This document shows positions 8,731 to 49,991 of a DNA stretch of 64,000 bases, piece by piece. Source of the stretch: Chloroflexota bacterium (GTDB lineage: Bacteria > Chloroflexota > Dehalococcoidia > JACPEP01). Position 1 is the first letter of the stretch. The number at the start of each line of letters is the position of its first letter. Made by a program: the position numbers and the translations under genes. Under the pieces are notes generated by a model that was given only the letters and a program-made list of their open reading frames with translations, was not told where the DNA came from and searched no databases. The stretch is from NCBI GenBank assembly GCA_016183425.1, contig JACPEP010000041.1, positions 3,704 to 67,703 of the forward strand. The letters are read 5' to 3'.

Positions 8731-10095
8731 ATGGAACAACTCACTGGCATCGACGAAGAGCGTTATCTGGAACCCGTTAAGAAGGTGGGGAGGGGGTTCT
8801 ATATCACGGTGGCTTTCCTTCTCTCCATCATCGCCTGGGGAGCCTTCGCCTGGTACACCCAGTTCCAGACTGGGCTAGGGATCACCGGCTTGAATCGGCC
8901 GGTGTTCTGGGGGTTCTACATCACCAACTTTGTTTTCTTCATCGGCATCAGCCACGCCGGGACCCTGGTGTCCGCCATTTTGCGCCTCACTCAAGCCGGA
9001 TGGCGGCGCCCCATCACCCGCGTCGCCGAGGCCATCACCGTCTTCACCCTCCCCGTGGGTGCCATGAACGTCCTCTTCGACGTGGGGCGGCCCGATCGGA
9101 TACTGAACATCATCCTCCACCCCCAGGGCCGCTCTCCCTTAATATGGGACATCGGCAGCATCAGCATGTACCTGACGGCCAGCGTCATCTACCTCTACCT
9201 GCCCCTCATTCCCGACATCGCCTTGTGCCGCGACCGCATTGGAGGGTGGCGGCAGGAGCTTTACCGTATTCTGGCCCTGGGCTGGAGGGGCACGGAGGCC
9301 CAGAAAAAGCGCCTCAAGATGGGCATCGGCATTATGGCCGTAGTGGTCATCCCTATCGCCGTCTCGGTGCACACGGTGGTCTCCTGGATATTTGGCATGA
9401 CAACGCGGGCCGGGTGGCACAGCACCATCTTCGGCCCTTATTTCGTAGTGGGGGCCATCTTCTCCGGCATCGCGGCGGCCATCCTGGCCATGGCCGTGGT
9501 GCGGAAGGTCTTCCATATGGAGCACACCTTGAAGCCCCGCCACTTCGACTATATGGGTCTTCTTCTTCTGGTACTCACTGCCGCCTATATCTACTTCACC
9601 TTTGCCGAGTATCTTACCGTCTACTACGGCTACGGCGGCTCCGCCACCGAGGGATCCCTCCTCACCGCCCTGTTCACGGGCGAGTTCGCTCTAACCTTCT
9701 GGGTCATGGTGGTCTTCGGTTTCTTTGTGCCGGGCATCATCCTGGCCTTCCCCCAGGGGCGGAGCATCCGGGGGACGGTAATCGCCTCGGTGCTCATCGT
9801 GTTCTTCATGTGGGTCAAGAGGTTTATCATCGTCGTCCCCTCTCTTTCCCGACAGTTTCTTCCCTATCCCACCGGCTTCTACCAGGCGACCTGGGTAGAG
9901 TGGTCACTGACGGCGGCCAGCTTCGCCGTCTTTGTCCTCCTCTACGTCGTCTTCTCCCGGATGTTCCCCATCGTTTCGGTATGGGAGCTAAAGGAGGGGG
10001 AGGAGGAAGCCAGGGAGAAGGCAGAGGAAGCGGCGAAAATGCTGGCCCCCGCAGGGGCTCCGAGACAGTCTCGGGCCAGCGAGGTTTTGGGGTAA
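8731..10095 (+). CDS. NrfD/PsrC-type polytopic membrane anchor subunit (quinone-interacting)
   Basis: 454-aa highly hydrophobic ORF with 8-10 predicted TM helices, immediately downstream of the A and B subunits. C-terminal acidic tail. Confidence 0.8.
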   Translation: MEQLTGIDEERYLEPVKKVGRGFYITVAFLLSIIAWGAFAWYTQFQTGLGITGLNRPVFWGFYITNFVFFIGISHAGTLVSAILRLTQAGWRRPITRVAEAITVFTLPVGAMNVLFDVGRPDRILNIILHPQGRSPLIWDIGSISMYLTASVIYLYLPLIPDIALCRDRIGGWRQELYRILALGWRGTEAQKKRLKMGIGIMAVVVIPIAVSVHTVVSWIFGMTTRAGWHSTIFGPYFVVGAIFSGIAAAILAMAVVRKVFHMEHTLKPRHFDYMGLLLLVLTAAYIYFTFAEYLTVYYGYGGSATEGSLLTALFTGEFALTFWVMVVFGFFVPGIILAFPQGRSIRGTVIASVLIVFFMWVKRFIIVVPSLSRQFLPYPTGFYQATWVEWSLTAASFAVFVLLYVVFSRMFPIVSVWELKEGEEEAREKAEEAAKMLAPAGAPRQSRASEVLG

Positions 10096-27261: not shown

Positions 27262-27711
27262 TTAAGATAACTGTTTTCGTACCGCCTCCCGCCTCTCACA
27301 GAGAGCCTTGAGCCGGGAGTCCCATGATATTTGGGGGGTATGTTTGCCTGCCTCCCAACTGTTCACCGTCACCTGCTCGACCCCCAATAGCCGGGCAAAA
27401 TCCCCCTGGGATAGGCCCAGGTATTCTCTTAGCGCCTTGATTTCTTCTGGGGTCATCTTCACATCTCCTGCTGCTCTCTCGGGGAAGCGTTCCACCACCT
27501 CTTGCCCTTCGGTCAATCGGTCAACACTTGTACCCGGGGAGACCAGAGAGCTTCTCTGATGCGGTGACGACTGCCTAGGAGCGGCACTGAAAAGCCCTTT
27601 GCCTATTTCTAATTCCATGTTGGAGATGGTCCGCAAGAGCTTACCCAGGTCTATCAATTGTCTGACCAGGTTATGGAGACTAAATACATTCCTCGGCATA
27701 ATCCTATCCAA
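27262..27711 (-). CDS. partner protein, copy 1: conserved N-terminal segment fused to a C-terminal XRE-type HTH
   Basis: N-terminus LHNLVRQLIDLGKLLRTISNMELEIGKGLFSAAPRQSSP parallels that of the 28258-28911 protein. C-terminus MTPEEIKALREYLGLSQGDFARLLGVEQVTVNSWEAGKHTP is a Cro/C1-type HTH. Confidence 0.6.
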   Translation of the reverse strand: MDRIMPRNVFSLHNLVRQLIDLGKLLRTISNMELEIGKGLFSAAPRQSSPHQRSSLVSPGTSVDRLTEGQEVVERFPERAAGDVKMTPEEIKALREYLGLSQGDFARLLGVEQVTVNSWEAGKHTPQISWDSRLKALCERREAVRKQLS

Positions 27712-27717
27712 TTAGGT

Positions 27718-27775
27718 AAGATCGAAAACTACTCCAGAGCGGCTACGCATTCCATTTCGATGAGATAGTCCGGGC
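27718..27775 (-). pseudogene. duplicated 3'-end fragment of ridA (duplication scar)
   Basis: atcgaaaactactccagagcggctacgcattccatttcgatgagatagtccggg is nearly identical to 29005-29058, which encodes the ridA C-terminus ...DYLIEMECVAALE. Confidence 0.7.
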
Positions 27776-27860
27776 CAGACGCCGGGCCTGGGGGTAGTCC
27801 ACCCGCCCCTCTTCATCGAAGGGAGTCACCATGGCCGTAAGCAGCCTGCCCAGTTCTATC
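27776..27860 (-). pseudogene. duplicated 5'-end fragment of dapA (duplication scar)
   Basis: Minus-strand translation MIELGRLLTAMVTPFDEEGRVDYPQARRLAR. About 88% nucleotide identity to the dapA 5' end at 26941-27050. Confidence 0.7.
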
Positions 27861-27874
27861 ATAGCTGGCTCCTT

Positions 27875-28255
27875 TCACACCACAATATGAAGTACCCCTT
27901 GAAGGCCATCCAAGGTTATCTCTAGCTGATTTAGCAGGTCCCTTCCCAAGAGGGCATAAGTTTCTTGCCAGAGGACGGCACGAATAAACTTATGCTCGCC
28001 CTCTCCAGTGGCCAAGGTCACTGAAAACACTGGCGACTCTCTTACCTTGCCTTCAAACCCCCTGAGCAAGGCTGTATCAGCGCGGCGCATTTGAAGCTGC
28101 CTGGTCAAAGCGGAAGGTATGGCAGTAATGTCGGCTCCAGAGTCAACGAAGGCATTTACTGTAACTGGAGGCGAGGAAGAAAGGGGAACGCCTATCTTCA
28201 CCGGCAACACAGGGGCCGGAGGGTCAAAAGAGGCATTATAGGCATATGTGGCCAT
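27875..28255 (-). CDS. retropepsin-like (clan AA) aspartic protease, intact copy
   Basis: Catalytic motif VDSGADITAIP (D-S-G-A) in a protein of about 126 aa. The ATG at 28255 lies 2 nt after the stop of the upstream partner gene; the ORF-track start at 28327 overlaps that gene. Confidence 0.7.
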   Translation of the reverse strand: MATYAYNASFDPPAPVLPVKIGVPLSSSPPVTVNAFVDSGADITAIPSALTRQLQMRRADTALLRGFEGKVRESPVFSVTLATGEGEHKFIRAVLWQETYALLGRDLLNQLEITLDGLQGVLHIVV

Positions 28256-28257
28256 CT

Positions 28258-28911
28258 CTATGGCCTCCCTACGAGCCTGGGGGAAGGCATACTGACTACC
28301 CGAGGTTCCTCGACCTTGGGCATGCAAATGTCCCGATAGCCGAACTTACCGTAAACCCTTTCTGCCAGCCGGGAAAAGTTGGCATCCGAGTCCACCACTT
28401 GCCTGTTGAGTAGAGCGATATATCTGCCTTTGTATTCCGAAAGGAACTGGGCCAGATGCTCTTCGTAAAATTGGAGGTCATCCTCAAAAGAAGCTTGTTC
28501 CTCCTTCATAGCTGCTCTCTCGTGGAAGCGCTTCATCACCCCCTGCCCCTCTTCAAAGTCGAAAAGGGGCCGCAGGAGCCTGCCGATTATTTCTTCCTTT
28601 CTCGCCTTGCTGCTGGTCCGAATGGACATCCGCTCCGCCAGGTCCACCAACTGGGGAACAGAAAACTCATCGAGGCGCTCGTAGGCTTCCTCCTGGCTCA
28701 GATTCTTGATTTCCAGGGCCAGCTTCTCAACATCTGTATCTCGGAGGGACAAAAAGCTTCGACGGCGCGGTGACTTCTTCTTGGGTGCAGCACCCGAAAG
28801 CTCTTTGCCCGCTTTCAGTTCCGTGTTAGGGAGGGTCTGCAAGAGCTCGCCCAGCTCAATCAGTTGCCTGGCAAGGTCATGCAAGTGGGATATGCTTTCA
28901 GTGTCCTTCAA
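28258..28911 (-). CDS. partner protein, copy 2 (217 aa; shared N-terminal segment, unknown C-terminal domain), translationally coupled to the protease
   Basis: N-terminus HLHDLARQLIELGELLQTLPNTELKAGKELSGAAPKKKSP resembles copy 1. The C-terminus ...YIALLNRQVVDSDANFSRLAERVYGKFGYRDICMPKV resembles no family I can name. Confidence 0.6.
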   Translation of the reverse strand: MKDTESISHLHDLARQLIELGELLQTLPNTELKAGKELSGAAPKKKSPRRRSFLSLRDTDVEKLALEIKNLSQEEAYERLDEFSVPQLVDLAERMSIRTSSKARKEEIIGRLLRPLFDFEEGQGVMKRFHERAAMKEEQASFEDDLQFYEEHLAQFLSEYKGRYIALLNRQVVDSDANFSRLAERVYGKFGYRDICMPKVEEPRVVSMPSPRLVGRP

Positions 28912-39786: not shown

Positions 39787-40725
39787 CTATTCCAGCACTA
39801 CCTCGCCGCTCTTGCCACCCCTCTTGCGCGCCAGCCGTATCCCTTCGATGCGCATTCCGGGGTCCATGGCCTTGCACATGTCGTAGACGGTCAAAGCCGC
39901 CACCGCCACCGCCGTCAGGGCCTCCATCTCCACCCCCGTCTGGCCCCGGGTCTTGACGGTAGCTGTGATATTCACCCCCGGCCGCTCCTTGTCCAGTTGG
40001 AAGTCCACCGTTACCTGGGTGAGGCGAAGGGGATGACACAAAGGGATGAGATGGGGGGTCTCTTTGGCGGCCAGTATCCCCGCCACCTGGGCCACGGAGA
40101 GAACGTCCCCCTTGGCCACCTGGCCCGCCTCGATAGCGCGAAAGGTCTCCGCCATCATGAGAACAGTCCCCCGGGCCACCGCCTCCCGCTCCGTCTCCCC
40201 CTTATCCGTCACGTCCACCATACGGGCGCGGCCCTGACTGTCCAGGTGGGTTAGCCCGGGCACCCCCTGATGAGATAGAGGGGAAACCTCCCCCTGGCTT
40301 TGCCCGTTTCCCTCCCTTTGACCGGATGGGGGCCCCGCCATCTCGTTGGCCAGGGCATCGGCCCGTTCGTTTTCCGGATGTCCCGCATGGCCTTTGATCC
40401 ACTGCCAGCGGACGCTGCGATGGGCCACCACCCCGTCCAGCTTCTGCCACAGGTCCAGATTGGCTCGCCGCTTCCAGCCTCGGGTCATGGTGTTGACCAG
40501 GTACTGGCTGTCGCTGTGGACGGTGACCGGGGCACCCTCTGGGGTCTGGGCCAGGCCATTGATGGCCGCCAAAATCTCCATGCGGTTGTTAGTGGTGTTT
40601 GCCTCCCGGCCCTTAATTTCTACCTGGTGGTGCGCTTCGGGCGCAACAATGATGGCCGCCCAGCCGCCGGGGCCGGGATTGCCGAGGCAGGCGCCATCCA
40701 CATAGAGGTCGATAATCCCCGTCAC
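39787..40725 (-). CDS. in-frame fusion of ribonuclease HI (N-terminal) and cyclic pyranopterin monophosphate synthase MoaC (C-terminal)
   Basis: RNase HI motifs [20 protein letters not shown]...[12 protein letters not shown]...HSDSQYLV...[17 protein letters not shown] linker follows, then MoaC ([29 protein letters not shown]...LIPLCHPL...[23 protein letters not shown]). No stop codon separates them. A probable GTG start at 40725 directly follows the moaA stop. Confidence 0.7.
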
Positions 40726-41720
40726 CCCCCAATCTGTCTCATGGGCCGTGCGGAGGGGACGAGGCCTTCCTTCAAGCGGTGATGCTCCGGCTTCTCCCAC
40801 ACCGCCCGGGCAAGAAGTGCCTTCAGCTCCTCTTCGGTAGCGCCGTGACGTAATGGCGTTCTCAGGTCTATCTCTCTATCATCCAAGAGGCAGGGGCGCA
40901 GGCGACCATCGGCGGTGAGGCGCATCCGGTTGCAGCCAAAGCAGAAGTGCTCGCTTACCGGGCTGATGAAGCCGATGGTGCCCACCGCCCCCCGGTAGCG
41001 GAAGTAACGGGCGGGGCCGCCGCCCACGGCGGGGTAGTGGGGCTCCAGGGGCCCCAGGACGCTAAGCCTCTCCTGCACCTCCGCCGCGGAGACAAAACGC
41101 TCATCCTCATTGATGGCCTGGCAGGACTCCTCCTCTCCAAAGGGCATCAGCTCGATGAACCGAACGTGCCAGTCCCTGGTCATGGTACTGCGGGCGAAGT
41201 CCAAAACCTCGTCGTCGTTTACGCCCCTGAGCACCACCATGTTTATCTTCACCGGGCGAAGCCCCGCCTGATAAGCGGCTTCAATGCCGGCCAGCACCTC
41301 TGGAAGCCAGGGACGCCCCGTGATCTGACGGAACCGTTCCTCCCGCAGGGTATCCAGGCTGACGTTCACCCGCTTCAACCCGGCCTCCTTGAGGGAGGCG
41401 GCGTAACGCCGTAAAAGGATGCCATTGGTGGTGAGGCCAAGGTCATCCAGACCGGGGATCTGGCCCAGCATGGCGACCAGCTCCAAGATGTCGGCTCGCA
41501 CCAGGGGCTCGCCGCCGGTGAGGCGCACCTTGTGCACCCCCAGCTCCGCCGCCGCCGCCACCACCTGATAAATCTCCTCGTATCTCAGCATCTCCTTTCG
41601 GGGTGCCAGGGATAGCCCCTGGGACGGCATGCAGTAGAGGCATCTCAGGTTGCACCGGTCGGTAACGGAGATACGCAGATAGGTGATGGGGCGGGAGAAG
41701 GAATCGGTAAGGCCGGTCAT
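40722..41720 (-). CDS. moaA: GTP 3',8-cyclase (radical SAM; molybdenum cofactor biosynthesis)
   Basis: Radical SAM motif [10 protein letters not shown] and the C-terminal auxiliary cluster motif [13 protein letters not shown]. Length 332 aa. Confidence 0.9.
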
Positions 41721-42322
41721 AGACCGTCTCCCCCAAAGAGTTGGGCCAGGATACGGCGCGCCTTGGCCGCCGCCTTGGCGCGATGGCTCACCTTATTCTT
41801 TTCCTCCATGGGCAGCTCCGCCATGGTCATTCCCAGCTTGGGGAGATAGAAGACAGGGTCATAGCCAAAACCGTGCCCCCCTTTAGGTTGGAAAGCGATG
41901 AGACCACGACACTGCCCGCTGCACAACTCCAGGGTTCCCCGGTCCGAGGCAATGGCGATGACACAGCGAAAGCGCGCCCTCCGCTTGGGCCAGGGAACCC
42001 CTTCCATTTTTCGGAGGAGATAGGCTATCCTCTCCCCGTTGGATACACCAGGGCCGGCGTAGCGGGCGGAGCGCACGCCCGGCTCTCCCCCCAAAGCCTC
42101 CACCTCCAGGCCAGAATCATCGGCCACCGTCACCAGCCCGCTGGCCAGAGCACAAGTAGTGGCCTTGCTGATAGCGTTTTCCTCCATGGTGGCCCCCTTC
42201 TCCGCCATCTCCACCTCCAACCCCTCCTCCTCGGGCGTGGTCAACTGGAGAGGAAGGCCGGTGAAGAGGAGCCGATATTCGGCCACCTTGGCCGCGTTAC
42301 GGGTCGCCAGAAGGAGCTTCAC
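41717..42322 (-). CDS. rdgB: non-canonical purine NTP pyrophosphatase (dITP/XTP pyrophosphatase, RdgB/HAM1 family)
   Basis: N-terminus MKLLLATRNAAKVAEY...DDSGLEVEALGGEPGVRSARYAG and the Ham1 fold pattern. Confidence 0.85.
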   Translation of the reverse strand: MKLLLATRNAAKVAEYRLLFTGLPLQLTTPEEEGLEVEMAEKGATMEENAISKATTCALASGLVTVADDSGLEVEALGGEPGVRSARYAGPGVSNGERIAYLLRKMEGVPWPKRRARFRCVIAIASDRGTLELCSGQCRGLIAFQPKGGHGFGYDPVFYLPKLGMTMAELPMEEKNKVSHRAKAAAKARRILAQLFGGDGL

Positions 42323-42340: not shown

Positions 42341-44329
42341 CTAACTTTCTTTTGGAACAATGTCCCATCGTTTATATTCTCCGGTCATTGTGTCCAACAG
42401 ATGTTCCTGAGCTTCGCTGGTTTGTCTTACCTCTTTCTCAGACTCGGTCTCCAGCTTTTCTGCCAACGTGAGGCATTTATCGAAGTCGTCTTGTATGATC
42501 CAGACACCATGTCTCAACCCGAAAAACGCCGGTGGAGCCGTCTTCTTGTTGTCAATATGCGTCTTTAGATTCTCGAAAAGATCAGCTTGCTTCACGTTGC
42601 GGCCTAACCAACAAGGTATTAGGCAGTTGTCAACCAGGAAGACAGACTCCGCACTCATGTCGGATCCTATGTTAATCCTGTGCTCGATCAACCAAGCCCA
42701 GGCCAGAATATTAACTGGATGAGGGTGCAGAATCCACTCGCGCTGAAGAGCCAGATGGATCGCGTAGGAGAAGGGGGTTTCTTGTGATGGCCGATGAATA
42801 GCCCCTCCCAGGCAGGTGTAGTCGAACTCATACCAAACACCTGGATATTTAGGTTCAGGCTGGCCCGTGCCCTTAACGGCTACGATCATGTTGGATGTCA
42901 GTTGGCTCTTGTCAACGCCCGAGGGTGTGATGAACACCACATCCTTGTCCTTTACCCATCTGCTCACCGTGTTGAAGGGCAGAGCAATCCTTGAATAGCG
43001 CATTTCGAAGAAGCCACTGAAGCATCTGCGACTCGCCTCCGCAACTGCCTTGGCCCCTGCTTCTAAATCACCGATGCTCAACGAATATTTACACGCAAAC
43101 TCACTAGGTTGGAGGAAATTAGGTGGTTCCCTGATGCCATCTGTGAACTTGGTGCCTCCAGTTCGTAGTGGCCCCAACGGCTTTTGGACATCGAGGTTGC
43201 TCTTTAGCTCTTTTATGTCATCCCATAGATAGTTGAGGTTGCAGAGAGCCCGAGCCGAGGCAGTCGGGCCCTTGCCGCTTAAGGTTTGACGGATAGCTTC
43301 AACGAGATCAGGAACTCTTTGTACTGCCAGCCTGGCTGCCAGTTCTCCCAGTTCCTTACCATCATCAACGAATCGGTTGCGAGGGGCTGACCAACTGGCT
43401 GAAAGAGCCTCGGATCTTTCGTCAACGTCAATGTCAGTACGTTGTGTTAGTTCCTTAATCGCATACCACGTGCGGTCTCTGACATAGCCCGCGGGGGGCT
43501 TCCTGTATGTGTACTCTGGCTGGTTGTCTTCTTGCCCCAGCTTCGCTTTGTACGTGGCATAGTTATTTGTAGCACTCTGGAAATGACCGAAGTGTGCCAT
43601 AAGACAATTACTTAGTTGATTGCCTGACCCTCCTATGGTGCGAAGATGAGAATGACTTCTTTCACCGCTACTCTGGACGCCGGGACCTGTTACATAGGAC
43701 TCTCCATGGTCGGGATAGTTGCAGATGATGTAATGGGCGTACATGCTGTAGGCCAAAGCGCCAGCCAACGTTTGGAAGGTGCTGGTTGCTTCGTTGCGGC
43801 AGGGGATTATCAGATGGTCGACCTTACCCCACAGCATGGGTAAAAGCTCTACACTAGTAAAATCGTAGCATACCAGCACGGCGAAGTCGCCGATAGGGGT
43901 GTTGACAAATACCTGGAGCTCTTTTCCGCATTTGGCATGGGCCGCCACTATTTTCTCGTATTGTTCTTCTTTCGGGGAGAGATGTAGCTTTATTTGGTCG
44001 TAATGCTCGCCTGTCGGAAAGTACACCCGGCACTTATTGACGGGTTCGTTTTTAGGGCCAGGCTCAAAGCCTGCTACGATGATGGCGGTATTTTTCTGGG
44101 CAGCCTCCTGTAGTGCTGAATTTATCTCCGTAGATTCCGGAAAGGCGTATTCTGGGAATACTAGAAGCATGCCTGCTTCCTCCTTTTGCAGCCGCTGTAC
44201 TTGTAGTTCCTGCAAGGGCTTTTCCAGGTCTGTCGCCGTTGCGCCTTTCCACTGTGCTAGTATTACCAACACTTCCGAGGCCGGTATCTTTTGGAGATTT
44301 TTCGGGGTGAGCCTCACCTCCGAAGGCAT
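42341..44329 (-). CDS. large multidomain protein in a low-GC island: N-terminal carbon-nitrogen hydrolase (nitrilase superfamily) domain plus C-terminal class II aldolase/adducin-like domain
   Basis: A nitrilase-type E-K-C triad is suggested by LVFPEYAF, QIKLHLSP and AVLVCYDF. The C-terminal VVFITPSGVDKSQLTSNMIVAV...PSQETPFSYAIHLALQ...HPHPVNILAWAW matches the class II aldolase pattern. GC is about 47% against about 64% in the flanks. Confidence 0.6.
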   Translation of the reverse strand: MPSEVRLTPKNLQKIPASEVLVILAQWKGATATDLEKPLQELQVQRLQKEEAGMLLVFPEYAFPESTEINSALQEAAQKNTAIIVAGFEPGPKNEPVNKCRVYFPTGEHYDQIKLHLSPKEEQYEKIVAAHAKCGKELQVFVNTPIGDFAVLVCYDFTSVELLPMLWGKVDHLIIPCRNEATSTFQTLAGALAYSMYAHYIICNYPDHGESYVTGPGVQSSGERSHSHLRTIGGSGNQLSNCLMAHFGHFQSATNNYATYKAKLGQEDNQPEYTYRKPPAGYVRDRTWYAIKELTQRTDIDVDERSEALSASWSAPRNRFVDDGKELGELAARLAVQRVPDLVEAIRQTLSGKGPTASARALCNLNYLWDDIKELKSNLDVQKPLGPLRTGGTKFTDGIREPPNFLQPSEFACKYSLSIGDLEAGAKAVAEASRRCFSGFFEMRYSRIALPFNTVSRWVKDKDVVFITPSGVDKSQLTSNMIVAVKGTGQPEPKYPGVWYEFDYTCLGGAIHRPSQETPFSYAIHLALQREWILHPHPVNILAWAWLIEHRINIGSDMSAESVFLVDNCLIPCWLGRNVKQADLFENLKTHIDNKKTAPPAFFGLRHGVWIIQDDFDKCLTLAEKLETESEKEVRQTSEAQEHLLDTMTGEYKRWDIVPKES

Positions 44330-44370
44330 AGCTATCCTCCTTATATGGTCTCAGTCCAGACTCTTCCCCT

Positions 44371-45424
44371 CTAGATATCTTCGAATCTGCCCTCCAGCCT
44401 TCGCATTATCGAGCCCATAGTGGTGTACTCCATCTCATCCAGGGGCAGGCGGTGAGGCTCGAAGGGGCCGTGGCGCCGCAGGTAGTCCGCGATAAGGTTG
44501 GCCTGATGCCGGGTCTCGTCGAAGCTGGGGTCGTCGAACATATCCCGGGGGCCCACCAGCTTGCCATTGGCCAGTTGGTAGCCCAGGGCGATTACCCGGG
44601 GCGGGCCGTCGAAGCGGCTGGGGTTGGCCGAGGCTACCGCGGTGGGCATCAGCGGGCCGTGATGGGAGCCCCGCATCCACCCCTCCACGATGAAGGGAAG
44701 GCTAAAGGGCTCTAAAACCTCCCCCACGGCCGGGAACTGGTTCTGGCAGCGCACCACACACACCGGGTCGTCCTTGCCCACGTAGCGCCCGGCGATGAGG
44801 CTCAGCCGCTGGGTGGAGGAAACGGCGCCGATCTCTCCCTTCTCTCGATGGTACACCGCCTTCACAGCAAAGCGAGAGGGAGCGCCCATGAACATCAACA
44901 TATGGTAGAGTTCCTCGGGAGCATCGAAGTAGATCTTCTTCGCTGGCCTCGGCAATGACCAGGCCCGCGGTGTTGAAGGGGTCGGCGAACATCTTGTACA
45001 GGGGCAGGTTCCAGGCGCCGGCCGAGGTCTTATCGGCCATAAAGACAATGATAGGCTCTGAGGGCCGCTCCTCAAAGGTCATCTCCGCCACTCCCGGGCC
45101 CATGCCCTTCACGTTGCCGGAAAAAGAGGTAGCTAGCAGGTCCTGGCCAGCCCCATAGAGCTTCAGGCTCCGGGCCAACTCGGTGCACGCCTCGAAGATA
45201 TCCCATGCCCGTTTATGGATTCGGGTATTCTCCTCGCCCTCCTGGTGGGTCATTATCAACTGCAGGTCATCTCCCACCCGGTTCACCTGGCAATCGATGA
45301 GGAGACCTTCGGTCCTGGCCTTCTCCAAAAGCTCTTGGGCCCTCTCTAAGATGGCGGGATGGCTGCTGGAATGGCCTACGTAGCCACCGATGTCCGCCTT
45401 GATGACACTAAAAGTTACCATCAT
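44371..45424 (-). pseudogene. fbp: fructose-1,6-bisphosphate aldolase/phosphatase (archaeal-type bifunctional FBPase class V) split by a frameshift near 44940-44950
   Basis: The N-terminal part (MMVTFSVIKADIGGYVGHSSSHP...LQLIMTHQEGEEN...FNTAGLVIAEA) is in one ORF. The C-terminal part (KKIYFDAPEELYHMLMFMGAPSRFAVKAV...) is in the overlapping -1 frame. Genuine pseudogene versus sequencing error cannot be decided here. Confidence 0.65.
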
Positions 45425-45632: not shown

Positions 45633-45779
45633 CACCTAAGAGGGCCTTAAAAACGAAAACACCCTACCCCGCGAAAAGAAACCCAACATAGGGTAACGCA
45701 ACCTTCAGAGCTAGTCTAACAGGGCCAAGGAGAGAGTGTCAAGGGCAGCCTAAGGCCGCTATCCACACGCAATATGGCC

Positions 45780-45840: not shown

Positions 45841-47046
45841 TTGAAGGTATCAAAGCTCAGCCCGCGGCTGGCGGTAGAACTGGATATTGTCGATGCCCAC
45901 GAAGAGATTCCGGTTATCGTGGAGCTGAAGCAGGGAGGGGTGGCTAAAGGGCTGGGCTTGCCAATTCATATGTCTTTTCGCCTCACCCCCACCGTTGCTC
46001 TCACCGCCCTTCGGGACGAGATCTTTCGCTTGACCACCTCCCCCCAGGTGAGCCGCATCTGGCGGGACGTGCCTGTGCACGCCTGCCTGGACGTTTCCGT
46101 GCCTCTAACGGAGGCTCCCTCGGTATGGCGGGAGGGCTTCCTGGGCTCGGGAATCACAGTCGCCATAGTCGATACAGGGGTGGACGCCCAACATCCCGCC
46201 CTGGTAGGCCGAGTGGTGGCTCGCTACGACCTCACCGGCGAGGGGGAAGAGGACAAAAACGGCCACGGAACCCATGTGGCGGGCATCATCGCGGGGACAG
46301 GGGACAAATATAAGGGGATGGCCCCCCAGGCACGGCTAGTGAGCGTTAAAGTGTTGCGACGGGATGGTTCCGGAATGATGACCGGGGTCATGCTAGGAGT
46401 AGAACGGGCTGCGGAAGAAAGAGTGCACGTCATTAACCTGTCCCTGGGCGCCTCTGGGGCCAGCGATGGCACCGATCCCCTGTCCCGAACCTGTGACGCC
46501 GCGGTGGCCCGAGGGGTGGCGGTATGCGTCGCCGCGGGCAATGACGGGCCGGCCCGGGGGACGGTGGGCTCTCCGGGCGCCGCCCGGCGAGTCATCGCCA
46601 TCGGTGCCAGCACCGATGGCGACGCCGTGGCCGACTTCAGCTCTCGAGGCCCCACTGCCGACGGCCGCGTCAAGCCCGACCTTCTCTTCCCTGGCTACGG
46701 CATTATCTCCGCCCGAGCCCAGGGAACGGCCATGGGACGGACAATAGACGACCTCTATACTGAGGCCAGCGGCACCAGCATGGCCACCCCCCATGCCTCC
46801 GGCGCCGTGGCCCTCCTCTTGGAGGCGCGACCGGGCTTGAATCCGGCCCAGGTAAAAGACCTTCTCATCTCTTCCGCCAAAGACCTGGGGCTGTCCCCTT
46901 CGGATCAGGGCGCGGGACGGGCCCAGGTGTATCATGCCTATGGCAGCCCCCTGCGGCCAACTCCAGCCCCCGAGCCAGCTCCCCTGCCAGAGCGGCCGGG
47001 CTGCCTCCCCGGCCTGGTGAGACAGGTCATGGGGGTAGGGGGATGA
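45841..47046 (+). CDS. subtilisin-like serine protease (peptidase S8)
   Basis: Catalytic triad motifs VAIVDTGVD, HGTHVAGIIAG and GTSMATPHASG. Confidence 0.85.
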   Translation: MKVSKLSPRLAVELDIVDAHEEIPVIVELKQGGVAKGLGLPIHMSFRLTPTVALTALRDEIFRLTTSPQVSRIWRDVPVHACLDVSVPLTEAPSVWREGFLGSGITVAIVDTGVDAQHPALVGRVVARYDLTGEGEEDKNGHGTHVAGIIAGTGDKYKGMAPQARLVSVKVLRRDGSGMMTGVMLGVERAAEERVHVINLSLGASGASDGTDPLSRTCDAAVARGVAVCVAAGNDGPARGTVGSPGAARRVIAIGASTDGDAVADFSSRGPTADGRVKPDLLFPGYGIISARAQGTAMGRTIDDLYTEASGTSMATPHASGAVALLLEARPGLNPAQVKDLLISSAKDLGLSPSDQGAGRAQVYHAYGSPLRPTPAPEPAPLPERPGCLPGLVRQVMGVGG

Positions 47047-49991
47047 AAAGCAGGAACCTCCTTCTCGTCCTCCTCTTCCTCACCCTGATCATAGGCTCTC
47101 CATCAAGGGGCGCTAAAGCCGGCGCCGATCCCATCCGCTCCGGCACCTGGAAGCAAACTACCGCCGCCGAGTTCAGGGCGGGCAGCCTGACAGACGTGAT
47201 GGTAGAGGATAAAAAGGGAGGCGAGCTGGTTCTCGCCCCCGGCGCCGCCTACGGCGTGTATGTCTCATCCCTCTTCCAAGCCCCCTTCTCTTTTAACGCC
47301 TTGGGGGCCTTCTGGGAAGCTCAGGAGCCCACGGGCAGCAGCATCCGCCTCTGGGTACGGAGCAGCGCCGATGGACGCACTTGGAGTCAATGGCTCCCCT
47401 TTGGCGAGGTGGACCAGATGCGGGGCTATGGGAAAACGGCGGCTGACCTGGTATTCACCTCCGGAAGCTACATCCAGTATCGGGGGGAGTTTACCCGGAG
47501 CGACCTGCGCCTGGCCCCCAGGCTAGAAGAGATAACCATTAATTATATCGACTCCTCGCCCGGCCCCACCCTGGACCAGGCCCGGGCCACCGCCCGAGTG
47601 TCGGCGGTGTCCCTGGGGGTGCCCCAGCCAGCCATTATTTCTCGGGCCGGCTGGGGGGCTGACGAAAGCTACCGCTTCTACGGCGGCACCGAGGTTTGGC
47701 CGCCCATCTACGCACCGGTCAGGGTCGCCATCAATCACCATACCGTAACCGCCAATGACGACCCCAACCCGGCGGCCACCGTGCGCGCCATCTACTACTA
47801 TCACGCCGTGACCTTAGGCTGGGGAGACATCGGCTACAACTATCTCGTCGATCGTTTTGGGAACATCTACGAGGGCCGCTATGGAGGCGACGACGTGGCG
47901 GGCGGACACGCCTATGACCATAATACGGGCAGCGTGGGCACCGCCGCTCTGGGAACCTATGCCAGTCAGGAGGTTTCGCCCCAACTATTGAATTCGGTGG
48001 CCAACCTCCTGGCGTGGGTCTCTTACCGCAAGGGCATCAACCCCATGGGCTATACTTACTTCATAGACAAAACGGTGCCCAATGTCATGGGGCATCAGGA
48101 CGTCAACCTCACCTCTTGCCCTGGTGCCACCTATTACGAGCAGATGCCCTCCCTCCGCTCCCTGATATGGAACCGTCTCCCCCCCTACGGCCAGGCCTGG
48201 GTCGGTCACCGCACCCCCACCCAGTTGAGCAAGGGACAGACCATCACCGTCGCCGTGACCCTGCGCAACAGCGGCACCTTGACCTGGACCGCCGGAGGGG
48301 ATAAACCCTTCCGCCTGGGATACAAATGGTATGATAGCTCGGGCCGGGAGTACACTCAGGTGCCCTCTGTGGAGTACCATACCTCCCTACCTGTGGATGT
48401 GGCTCCGGGGCAAGAGGTAACCATCTCGGCCCGACTCATCGTTCCCCAGATAACCGGCGCTTATACCCTCAAGTGGGATATGGTCCAGGAAAGTGTGACC
48501 TGGTTTTCCCAGGTAGCGGGGGGTAATCCCACCCTGGATGTGACCGTTCAAGTAACAGAGGCCGGCTATCGAGCGGCCTGGGGCAGCCACAACACCCCCC
48601 CTCGCATGGCGCCGGGGGAGACGGTGACCGTCACCATGGGGATAACCAACACCGGCGCCATAACCTGGACAGCATCGGGAAGCTATCCTTTCCACCTGGG
48701 CTACCATTGGTACGACCAAACGGGCGCCCAGTACGTTCAGTCGTTTTCGGATGACCACCGCACCTCCCTCCCCCGGGACATCGGGCCCGGGCAGGGAGTG
48801 ACCCTCAACGCCCTCCTCACCGCCCCCCGAAGCTCTGGCCCCTACCGTCTCAAGTGGGACATGGTTCAGGAACTGGTGACCTGGTTCGCCGATCGCGGAA
48901 GCCCCACCCTGGACGTGGACGTTCAGGTGTCTACCTATAGCGTAGGCTGGGGCAGTCATAACACCCCCCCTGGCATGACGCCGGGGCAGACGGTGACCGT
49001 TACGGTCGGGATGACCAACACCGGCGCCATAACCTGGACAGCATCGGGAAGCTACCCCTTCCACCTGGGCTACCACTGGTACGACCAAACGGGTGCCCAG
49101 TACGTCCAACCACCCGCGGACGATCAGCGCACCTCTCTCCCTCGAGACATCGGGCCCGGGCAGGGAGTGACCCTCAACGCCCTTCTCACCGCCCCCCGAA
49201 GCGCCGGCACCTACCGTCTGAAGTGGGACATGGTTCAAGAGCTGGTGACCTGGTTCGCCAACCAGGGGAGCCCCACCTTGGATGTGGACATTCGGGTGCT
49301 GACTACCTCACTAAAAACAGCGCCGTCGGAGCTCACCTATACCGCCCCCGCTGGAAGCGGGGTGATGAGTCAGACGTTAAGCCTTTGGAGCGAAGGGGGA
49401 GGCACCTTCACCTGGACCGCCACCGTAACCCCTACCCAGTGGCTCAGCATCGCCCCGAGCCAGGGGCAGCTCCCGGCTACGGTGACGGTGATGGCGGACG
49501 CCACCGGGCTGAGGGCCGGCATCCGGCGCGGCCAGGTGGCCTTCACCGCCCTTGCCCCCGTGAGCGACATTCTCACCGCTACCCTTCCCGTTACTCTAAC
49601 GCTGACTCTACCTCCTCCCACCTTGGATGTCTATCCCTCCTCGCCAACCCTTCCCGTCACCGGTACCTGGGATGTCATCACCCGGCCTTTCTACCTGCAA
49701 GGGGATGGTATGGCCTCATGGGCCGCGGCGGTTAGCCCCACGTCCTGGTTGAGGGTGGAGCCTCCCTCGGGCACCCTCCCCGGAGGCTTTACCTTGATAA
49801 TAGACCCCTCTCGCCTCACTCTCGGAAAGCACCGGGGGCAGGTGCAGATGAGGGGCAAGGTGGCGGATAAAGAGGTGGTCACCCGAACGGTGTCGGTGGC
49901 TCTAGACGTGGTCAGGAGTCCCCTTCGCCTTTTCTTACCCATAAGCGGGGAACCTATTTTCAGGGTATGGCCGTGGATAATCGGCCCCTAG
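47043..49991 (+). CDS. secreted N-acetylmuramoyl-L-alanine amidase (amidase_2/PGRP domain) followed by tandem repeats of a roughly 120-aa beta-rich domain and C-terminal Ig-like regions
   Basis: Signal peptide MKSRNLLLVLLFLTLIIGS. Amidase_2 region HHTVTANDD...YHAVTLGWGDIGYNYLVDRFGNIYEGRYGG...HAYDHNTGSVG. Three repeats of the pattern GSHNTPP.M.PG.TVTVT.G.TNTGAITWTASGSYPFHLGYHWYDQTGAQYVQ...LKWDMVQELVTWF. Confidence 0.75.
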   Translation: MKSRNLLLVLLFLTLIIGSPSRGAKAGADPIRSGTWKQTTAAEFRAGSLTDVMVEDKKGGELVLAPGAAYGVYVSSLFQAPFSFNALGAFWEAQEPTGSSIRLWVRSSADGRTWSQWLPFGEVDQMRGYGKTAADLVFTSGSYIQYRGEFTRSDLRLAPRLEEITINYIDSSPGPTLDQARATARVSAVSLGVPQPAIISRAGWGADESYRFYGGTEVWPPIYAPVRVAINHHTVTANDDPNPAATVRAIYYYHAVTLGWGDIGYNYLVDRFGNIYEGRYGGDDVAGGHAYDHNTGSVGTAALGTYASQEVSPQLLNSVANLLAWVSYRKGINPMGYTYFIDKTVPNVMGHQDVNLTSCPGATYYEQMPSLRSLIWNRLPPYGQAWVGHRTPTQLSKGQTITVAVTLRNSGTLTWTAGGDKPFRLGYKWYDSSGREYTQVPSVEYHTSLPVDVAPGQEVTISARLIVPQITGAYTLKWDMVQESVTWFSQVAGGNPTLDVTVQVTEAGYRAAWGSHNTPPRMAPGETVTVTMGITNTGAITWTASGSYPFHLGYHWYDQTGAQYVQSFSDDHRTSLPRDIGPGQGVTLNALLTAPRSSGPYRLKWDMVQELVTWFADRGSPTLDVDVQVSTYSVGWGSHNTPPGMTPGQTVTVTVGMTNTGAITWTASGSYPFHLGYHWYDQTGAQYVQPPADDQRTSLPRDIGPGQGVTLNALLTAPRSAGTYRLKWDMVQELVTWFANQGSPTLDVDIRVLTTSLKTAPSELTYTAPAGSGVMSQTLSLWSEGGGTFTWTATVTPTQWLSIAPSQGQLPATVTVMADATGLRAGIRRGQVAFTALAPVSDILTATLPVTLTLTLPPPTLDVYPSSPTLPVTGTWDVITRPFYLQGDGMASWAAAVSPTSWLRVEPPSGTLPGGFTLIIDPSRLTLGKHRGQVQMRGKVADKEVVTRTVSVALDVVRSPLRLFLPISGEPIFRVWPWIIGP
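48220..49300 (+). repeat. intragenic tandem repeats: two near-identical units of about 360 bp (48578-48937, 48938-49297) plus a diverged upstream unit (about 48220-48577)
   Basis: Units 2 and 3 are nearly identical at nucleotide level (ggcagccacaacacccccc...accggcgccataacctggacagcatcgggaagctatcc/ccc...). Unit 1 is about 50% identical at protein level. Confidence 0.7.

Follow-up and report, generated by a model that had tools for sequence, protein, structure and literature searches.

We analysed a stretch of 64,000 nt from a Chloroflexota bacterium (assembly GCA_016183425.1, contig JACPEP010000041.1, positions 3,704 to 67,703; hereafter the window), and focused on one gene in it, which we call X. 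X encodes a protein in which an N-terminal nitrilase-superfamily domain is joined, through a helical middle part, to a domain similar to class II aldolases. Its family is very rare and undescribed, and is most likely of an immune type rather than composed of metabolic enzymes. At about even chances, we consider X to be a horizontally acquired single-polypeptide conflict protein built of interchangeable modules, most likely of the anti-phage, abortive-infection type. The genes and signals at the locus are as follows.

41717..42322, minus strand: rdgB (XTP/dITP diphosphatase), the downstream neighbour of X, starting 18 nt past the X stop codon (TIGR00042, 163 bits, over the cut-off).
42341..44329, minus strand: X, one open reading frame (ORF) of 662 aa from the ORF list, with a nitrilase-superfamily N-domain, a helical middle and a class II aldolase-like C-domain.
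44336..44342, minus strand: Shine-Dalgarno sequence AAGGAGG, read directly, 6 nt 5′ of the X ATG and within the 41-nt spacer between fbp and X.
44371..45424, minus strand: fbp (class V fructose-1,6-bisphosphate aldolase/phosphatase), the upstream neighbour of X, split in two frames (NF041126 on both pieces).
45713..45742, minus strand: promoter-like site upstream of fbp with 10 of 12 consensus matches, a weak candidate (3 sites found against 2.0 expected).

A preliminary description of this DNA had placed one 662-aa protein between rdgB and a frameshifted fbp, and the ORF and the TIGR00042 and NF041126 matches agree with it. Beyond rdgB, the same strand carries moaA and then an RNase HI-MoaC fusion. 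The X protein was identical on three further metagenome contigs (four assemblies in all), and its 662-codon ORF was intact. The GC content of X was 50.7%, with 55% at third codon positions (GC3). Comparatively, the window had a mean GC of 60.1%, the 10-kb flanks of X had 61.0% and 61.4%, and the GC3 of the neighbouring genes was 64-80%. A sliding-window analysis showed that X holds the lowest-GC 2-kb stretch of the 64 kb, about 3.5 standard deviations under the mean. The compositional dip that had been reported is real, although the figures given for it (47% against 64%) were each 3-4 points off the measured 50.7% against about 61%. On the coding strand, a consensus scan gave no promoter-like or terminator-like site at the fbp/X/rdgB junctions. 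The site at 45713..45742 was the sole promoter candidate for fbp-X-rdgB-moaA, apart from a weaker 9/12 match inside fbp. X is probably transcribed from the fbp promoter.

We used the C-terminus of fbp as a probe and obtained 80 loci from species-representative genomes, with 68-79% identity. Most of them belonged to metagenome-assembled genomes of Dehalococcoidia, Anaerolineae or other Chloroflexota. None of these 80 related loci encoded a relative of X. Among the 75 loci with enough downstream sequence, 41 had rdgB no more than 200 nt after fbp according to tblastn coordinates. The true gap from the fbp stop to the rdgB start in relatives was a few nt, and moaA often came next. In the window, the same gap was 2,048 nt, comprising the 41-nt spacer, X and 18 nt. 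The only other occupant seen at this junction was a conserved GYD-domain gene of about 90 aa (MAVYVMLTTLTDEGRKT...), which was present in seven loci, among them those of several Dehalococcoidia relatives (L019, L027, L043, L053, L061 and L064). We found no direct or inverted repeats of note, tRNA genes or Rfam matches in the flanks of X. The comparison of loci supports fbp-rdgB-moaA as the ancestral arrangement. Because no flanking repeat, tRNA gene, Rfam match, promoter or terminator was found at the junctions, X would be a clean single-gene acquisition. The horizontal acquisition that had been argued from composition is thus supported, both by the GC outlier and by the direct fbp-rdgB junctions in relatives without X.

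Several other explanations of the locus were tried and rejected. An integrase or att-type island was rejected, as mobile-element signatures were not found and X has no promoter or terminator of its own. A non-coding RNA or reverse transcriptase (RT) partner like those of defence-associated reverse transcriptases (DRTs) was also rejected, since no RT lies nearby and X is separated from its neighbours by just 41 and 18 nt. The abstract of one paper describes the RdgB-like protein KomB as a component of the defence effector of Kongming (PMC13454610). We rejected rdgB as a KomB-like defence partner of X because 41 of 75 relatives without X also have it after fbp, and the juxtaposition of rdgB and X looks coincidental.

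We compared fbp by blastn with a sibling contig (L002; Logan SRR12113429), which comes from a different run within one study and was otherwise identical over the shared stretch. The frameshift in fbp proved to be a deletion of 41 bp at 44943/44944. The deletion is bounded by a GAGGC microhomology. Putting the 41 bases back gave an intact 364-aa FBP aldolase/phosphatase. Polymorphism between strains or an error in the assembly would account for it. Pseudogenisation of fbp as a local metabolic rewiring, which had been suggested before, was rejected, because the deletion is missing in the sibling contig and the 364-aa protein can be restored. The proposed tie between the two genes, that fbp is "also an aldolase-type enzyme", failed as well. 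The fbp product belongs to PF01950/NF041126, which is distinct from the PF00596 of X.

The N-terminal part of X was characterised by the following features.

43475..44329, minus strand: nitrilase-superfamily domain, residues 1-285, assigned to a defence-associated clade (PADLOC, PDB DRT1, Foldseek).
Catalytic codons of this domain, minus strand: 44150-44152 (E60), 43988-43990 (K114), 43967-43969 (E121) and 43868-43870 (C154).

The E-K-C triad of CN-hydrolases that had been read in PEYAF, KLHL and VCYDF corresponds to E60, K114 and C154. Together with E121, these residues form a tetrad that was invariant in all family members having that region and aligned with the FSEL, QGK, GE and ICYD motifs of DRT1. 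The clade is divergent. Pfam CN_hydrolase (PF00795) gave X only 15 bits, under the gathering score of 23.2, and only four of the 12 family members reached it at E ≤ 0.01. By comparison, the defence nitrilase models of PADLOC were matched by all nine members retaining the N-domain. The best of them for X was RTasNitrilase (95 bits, E 1.2e-27, profile positions 177-396 of 397), and RT_UG5-nitrilase (62 bits, 7.8e-18), Drt1a (50 bits, 3.3e-14) and CARF_nitrilase (32 bits, 1.4e-8) also matched. Searched against the PDB, the family profile gave 75 bits (E 3.6e-20) to the DRT1 cryo-EM structure 9yfd and 32.6 bits (2.4e-7) to yeast Nit3.

A structural model of X was built with AF2 from a 24-sequence alignment. 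Its mean predicted local distance difference test score (pLDDT) was 82.8, whereas a single-sequence run reached only 33. By region, pLDDT was about 90 for residues 1-290, 60-70 for 300-390 and 85-97 for 400-650. Foldseek gave 207 PDB matches to the modelled N-domain at E ≤ 1e-3. The best 50 were all of the nitrilase superfamily, in agreement with its alpha-beta-beta-alpha sandwich fold, and the first was Nit2 (2w1v, E 6e-13, target TM 0.66). The Pfam check of both halves of X, which had been proposed, gave a divided answer: PF00596 exceeded its gathering score, while PF00795 stayed under threshold and the N-domain was confirmed by PADLOC, PDB and Foldseek instead. Because the defence profiles far outscore the generic ones (95 against 15 bits; 75 against 32.6 bits), profile comparison places the N-domain in the defence-type nitrilase clade of DRT1, UG5, CARF and STAND fusions. 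Its nearest relatives outside the family were fusions to nSTAND1 or nSTAND3 NTPases, RT and PRTase, or tandem nitrilases, and all of them matched the same defence nitrilase models.

The rest of the protein comprises two regions.

43010..43474, minus strand: helical linker, residues 286-440, whose two long helices span 302-350 and 358-380 in the AF2 model (pLDDT 60-70).
42341..43009, minus strand: class II aldolase/adducin-like domain, residues 441-662 (PF00596), with conserved phosphate-site and metal-site residues.
Site codons of this domain, minus strand: 42779-42781 (E517), 42725-42727 (H535), 42719-42721 (H537) and 42509-42511 (H607).

Residues 286-440 had no match in Pfam, PADLOC or NCBIfam. 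This helical middle was conserved among the homologues, including the TIR variant described below. The C-terminal assignment to class II aldolases and adducins made earlier was sound. Aldolase_II (PF00596) reached 43 bits over residues 456-628 (gathering score 22.2), it was matched by 11 of the 12 family members, and the Glu and three His are intact. E517 aligned with the catalytic Glu (PSxE) of the class II aldolase 2irp. H535 and H537 aligned with the HxH motif of 2irp and Escherichia coli FucA, and H607 with their third His; we take the aligned FucA residues to be zinc ligands. The hhalign probability for the C-domain against E. coli FucA was 89%. Invariant or nearly invariant positions in the family were N453, S456, T468, K474, S515, E517, H535, H537, R577, H607 and W610. 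Canonical class II aldolases are zinc-dependent homotetramers, with their active and zinc sites at the subunit interfaces.

Full conservation of both active sites raises the main alternative, that X is a bifunctional metabolic enzyme. It might act in methionine salvage, or combine an amidase with a ketose-phosphate aldolase of one catabolic pathway, possibly tied through fbp to the metabolism of triose or fructose phosphates. Methionine salvage involves both a dehydratase with the class II aldolase fold (MtnB-type) and an omega-amidase of the Nit2 type. The best NCBIfam match of the C-domain was MtnB (TIGR03328, E 1.5e-4), its best PDB sequence match was the MtnB-like aq_1979 (2irp), and the top Foldseek match of the N-domain, Nit2, is an omega-amidase. 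However, the MtnB match had 21.3 bits against a cut-off of 137 and the FucA model NF005984 had 18.6 bits against 264, so that no subfamily cut-off (MtnB, FucA or AraD) was reached. Nit2 was one of hundreds of equal nitrilase-fold matches with 13-19% identity, and the profiles favour the defence nitrilases. The two domains are also separated by a helical insert of 150 residues. We consider a bifunctional metabolic enzyme unlikely.

One member of the family bears directly on this alternative. P0010 (496 aa) kept the middle part and the aldolase module (Aldolase_II, E 1.4e-11), and its N-terminus was a TIR_2 domain (E 7.5e-18) instead of the nitrilase. This TIR domain resembles the defence TIRs of ThsB, RT-TIR and SAVED-TIR. 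P0010 was found on two contigs assembled independently from two samples. The replacement of a nitrilase by a TIR domain would make no sense for a pathway enzyme. The metabolic-enzyme reading that was implicit in the preliminary description does not fit well with this swap and with the relatives of the N-domain, which point to a role in conflict or immunity.

The family was difficult to find. Homologue searches with the X protein or the first family alignment returned only the query and one STAND-nitrilase. When 1.84 billion representatives were searched exhaustively with HMMER, 283 matches were obtained, and only about ten of the best 150 had the whole architecture. The full-length homologues were P0003, P0006, P0007, P0008, P0012 and P0151 (the last through a cluster look-up), and P0004, P0005, P0011, P0030 and P0013 were partial. 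Their identity to X was 22-33%. P0003 was the best overall match of X, and the C-domain of X was slightly closer to the group of P0004, P0010 and P0013. A consensus-sequence probe of a collection of 5.8 billion clusters hit nine clusters and added P0152, P0153 and P0154. Over both protein searches there were about 15 homologue clusters, all metagenomic and with one or two members each. A scan on two peptide motifs only, in which absence is not proof, gave no match in species-representative genomes and viral contigs and one locus in metagenome contigs.

The homologues had a GC content of 31-36%, against 42-53% in their flanks. They were more AT-rich at every locus, by 8-20 points. An AT-biased gene family, which had been named as grounds for doubting the transfer, is thus half borne out. 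The bias is relative to the host at every locus examined, a pattern that fits a mobile accessory gene and is not an argument against transfer. We examined seven contexts, which varied between loci and were often accessory in character, and the neighbours of the homologues included the following.

P0003 (L005/L006): fbp upstream, a TPR protein downstream.
P0012 (L008): a hyp operon and small ORFs, including an Arc-like repressor.
P0007: glmS.
P0004 (L010): an AlkZ-like gene and DUF2278.
P0151 (L011): PIN and small ORFs, pyrG.
P0008 (L004): an IS1634-like transposase.

In these seven contexts, accessory genes (transposase, PIN, Arc-like repressor) were found in some and housekeeping genes in others. 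Genes of methionine salvage or of another pathway were not recurrent among them, which further reduces the likelihood of a metabolic enzyme, as do the absence of X from the 80 related fbp loci, its AT bias everywhere and its disruption by an insertion sequence (IS) in one population. At L008, an 87-aa Arc/ribbon-helix-helix-like repressor (9707-9970; phrog_876/582) ends 31 nt 5′ of P0012. It might serve this locus as a regulator or as an antitoxin-like partner.

The disrupted locus is L097 (590-2316; ENA ERZ23499054), which has 98% DNA identity with the P0003 locus L005. There, a MULE-type transposase stands in place of fbp and the N-terminal half of the X homologue. The remnant, P0153, is a 286-aa C-terminal product and was found on about ten contigs. 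This replacement is a natural inactivation of the X homologue.

Alternatively, X might be a stand-alone toxin-like or selfish gene without an immune role, for instance an addiction gene, a competition factor or a decaying hitch-hiker, kept only by co-transcription with essential neighbours. The family is very rare and patchy and is IS-disrupted in a sister population, small PIN and Arc-like genes lie near some homologues, and the window has no partner gene or regulator for X. However, all four assemblies carry the 662-codon ORF intact and without differences, and the catalytic residues of both domains are invariant at 22-33% identity, which indicates purifying selection on function. No secretion or immunity-protein signature was seen in X. 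This explanation seems rather improbable to us.

We compared X with known systems that share some of its parts. DRT1 (UG1) and UG5-large/DRT11 carry nitrilases of the same clade, with the Glu-Lys-Glu-Cys residues aligned. Their nitrilase is C-terminal, whereas that of X is N-terminal, and its partner, a helical region with an aldolase-like domain, is reported in no DRT. No RT domain or gene was found in X, among its neighbours in the window or at any homologue locus. The profile that fits the N-domain best, RTasNitrilase, represents the stand-alone nitrilases associated with RTs (UG5-small CL249 and UG6 CL285). Those are proteins of about 400 aa encoded beside an RT, whereas X is a 662-aa fusion without an RT neighbour. 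With the class II aldolases (FucA, RhaD, AraD and MtnB; PF00596), X shares the zinc-site Glu and three His and the N/S/T phosphate-site motifs. It differs from them in an insertion of about 18 residues before the PSQE motif, in the fused effector-type domain and in reaching none of their subfamily cut-offs. Avs/STAND NTPases, CARF/SAVED effectors and RT-TIR proteins likewise combine one scaffold with alternative effectors, as the X scaffold does with nitrilase and TIR. Nitrilase and TIR alternate on RT, CARF/SAVED and STAND scaffolds too (PADLOC RT-TIR_XII, SAVED_TIR and CARF_nitrilase). Unlike those modular sensors, the X scaffold lacks NTPase, CARF, SAVED and RT domains, and a class II aldolase fold as the constant part of such proteins was not encountered in PADLOC v2 or in the literature searched. 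A fusion of nitrilase or TIR to a class II aldolase-like domain was not described in the PDB, PADLOC v2, NCBIfam or the literature searched, and the earlier remark that no characterised enzyme has this domain pair still holds for these sources. We regard X, with moderate confidence, as a modular immune-type protein that places a known effector on a new scaffold. The clean insertion of X, the low GC at every homologue locus, the variable neighbourhoods, the transposase replacement at L097 and the rarity of the family speak for such a conflict protein as well.

In DRT1 and UG5/DRT11, the nitrilase is the effector, and mutants of its catalytic Cys lose defence (PMC13275509, PMC13436386). Its activity requires a tetramer, and its substrate is not known (PMC13275509, PMC13436386). 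By analogy with these systems, we infer that the nitrilase N-domain of X would be the effector, and that the helical middle and the aldolase-like domain would serve as a regulatory scaffold. Given the homotetrameric state of class II aldolases and the tetramer required by defence nitrilases, the C-terminal module might bring four effector domains together. A ligand, phosphorylated and sugar-like or derived from a nucleotide, probably binds in the conserved phosphate and metal pocket of this module and gates the activity. Such gating is much less certain than the immune-type role. Once activated, the nitrilase might hydrolyse an amide or amine bond of an essential small molecule, with NAD+ or a nucleotide as candidates. 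The TIR variant would be a sister design of X.

A more specific version of the gated design is that X and its relatives form a new single-gene immune system. The zinc and phosphate pocket of the aldolase-like domain would sense a metabolite of infection and free the tetramer-dependent nitrilase or TIR effector. The metabolite would be a ketose-phosphate or a nucleotide-derived compound, for example methylthioribulose-1-phosphate after the action of a phage S-adenosylmethionine lyase, or a sugar phosphate derived from ADP-ribose. Since nitrilase and TIR can replace each other on the scaffold, both might then act on one target, and the defence nitrilase could, for instance, deamidate NAD+. We hold this version to be quite doubtful. 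The roles of the two ends might also be reversed, with the aldolase-like domain as the effector or as an enzyme processing a phosphosugar or nucleotide-derived signal, and the nitrilase or TIR as the sensor or the signal generator. The metal and phosphate sites are conserved more strictly than a mere scaffold needs. In addition, TIR domains can generate signals, as ThsB does in Thoeris, and the TIR of P0010 matches ThsB models. Against this, the nitrilase is the effector in every characterised system of this clade, and in modular immune proteins the swapped end behaves as effector and the constant end as sensor. A reversal of roles appears very improbable.

Some observations weigh against X as a conflict protein. 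Both of its domains have complete catalytic sites, which suits a bifunctional enzyme equally well. In the window, X lies in a housekeeping operon, without a regulator of its own and not in a recognisable defence island, and no PADLOC model covers its C-terminal module. For most homologues, the context was a short contig. Moreover, fbp is the immediate, co-oriented upstream neighbour both in the window and at the P0003 locus (L005 35-3084; L006; JGI 3300042086/87), with spacers of 41 and 35 nt. The fbp of the P0003 locus was only 57% identical to that of the window and no closer to any of the 80 loci. An adjacency in two of seven contexts is far above chance for a single-copy gene. It is possible that it reflects an ancient co-transfer, recombination anchored in the conserved fbp, or a functional connection with the metabolism of triose or fructose phosphates. 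Its recurrence in two distant lineages could indicate a metabolic link.

If X is a conflict protein of the kind proposed, it might help to interpret other defence systems. The nitrilase is a required effector of several RT defence systems, and its substrate was left open by the 2026 DRT1 structure paper. A small RT-free protein in which a nitrilase of the same clade is joined to a compact domain with the potential to bind a ligand would offer a far simpler way to identify this substrate. The natural swap of TIR for nitrilase offers a concrete hypothesis on the target. In that case, the class II aldolase would be a metabolic-enzyme fold added to the sensor and scaffold domains of immune proteins. 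If X were truly a bifunctional enzyme, it would represent an uncharacterised amidase-aldolase fusion with a narrow distribution, which would be of modest interest.

We also noted some other features of the window. The RNase HI-MoaC fusion downstream of moaA (39787-40800, minus strand) is unusual: one ORF joins RNase HI (residues 30-157) to MoaC (182-333), and it was also called as a single gene on a sibling contig (L001). The second-lowest GC patch (27262-28911, about 53%) contains small minus-strand genes. These encode an Xre-type helix-turn-helix protein, an uncharacterised protein of 217 aa that repeats the N-terminus of the former at its own, and a retropepsin-like protein bearing a DSGAD motif. 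This patch is possibly another small accessory or toxin-antitoxin-like island. On the plus strand, an S8 subtilase gene (45841-47046) precedes a gene for a secreted-looking 982-aa protein (47043-49991). By eye, the latter has motifs like those of N-acetylmuramoyl-L-alanine amidases, followed by three near-identical repeats of about 115 aa (...GSHNTPP.M.PG.TVTV..G.TNTGAITWTASGSYPFHLGYHWYDQTGAQYVQ...).

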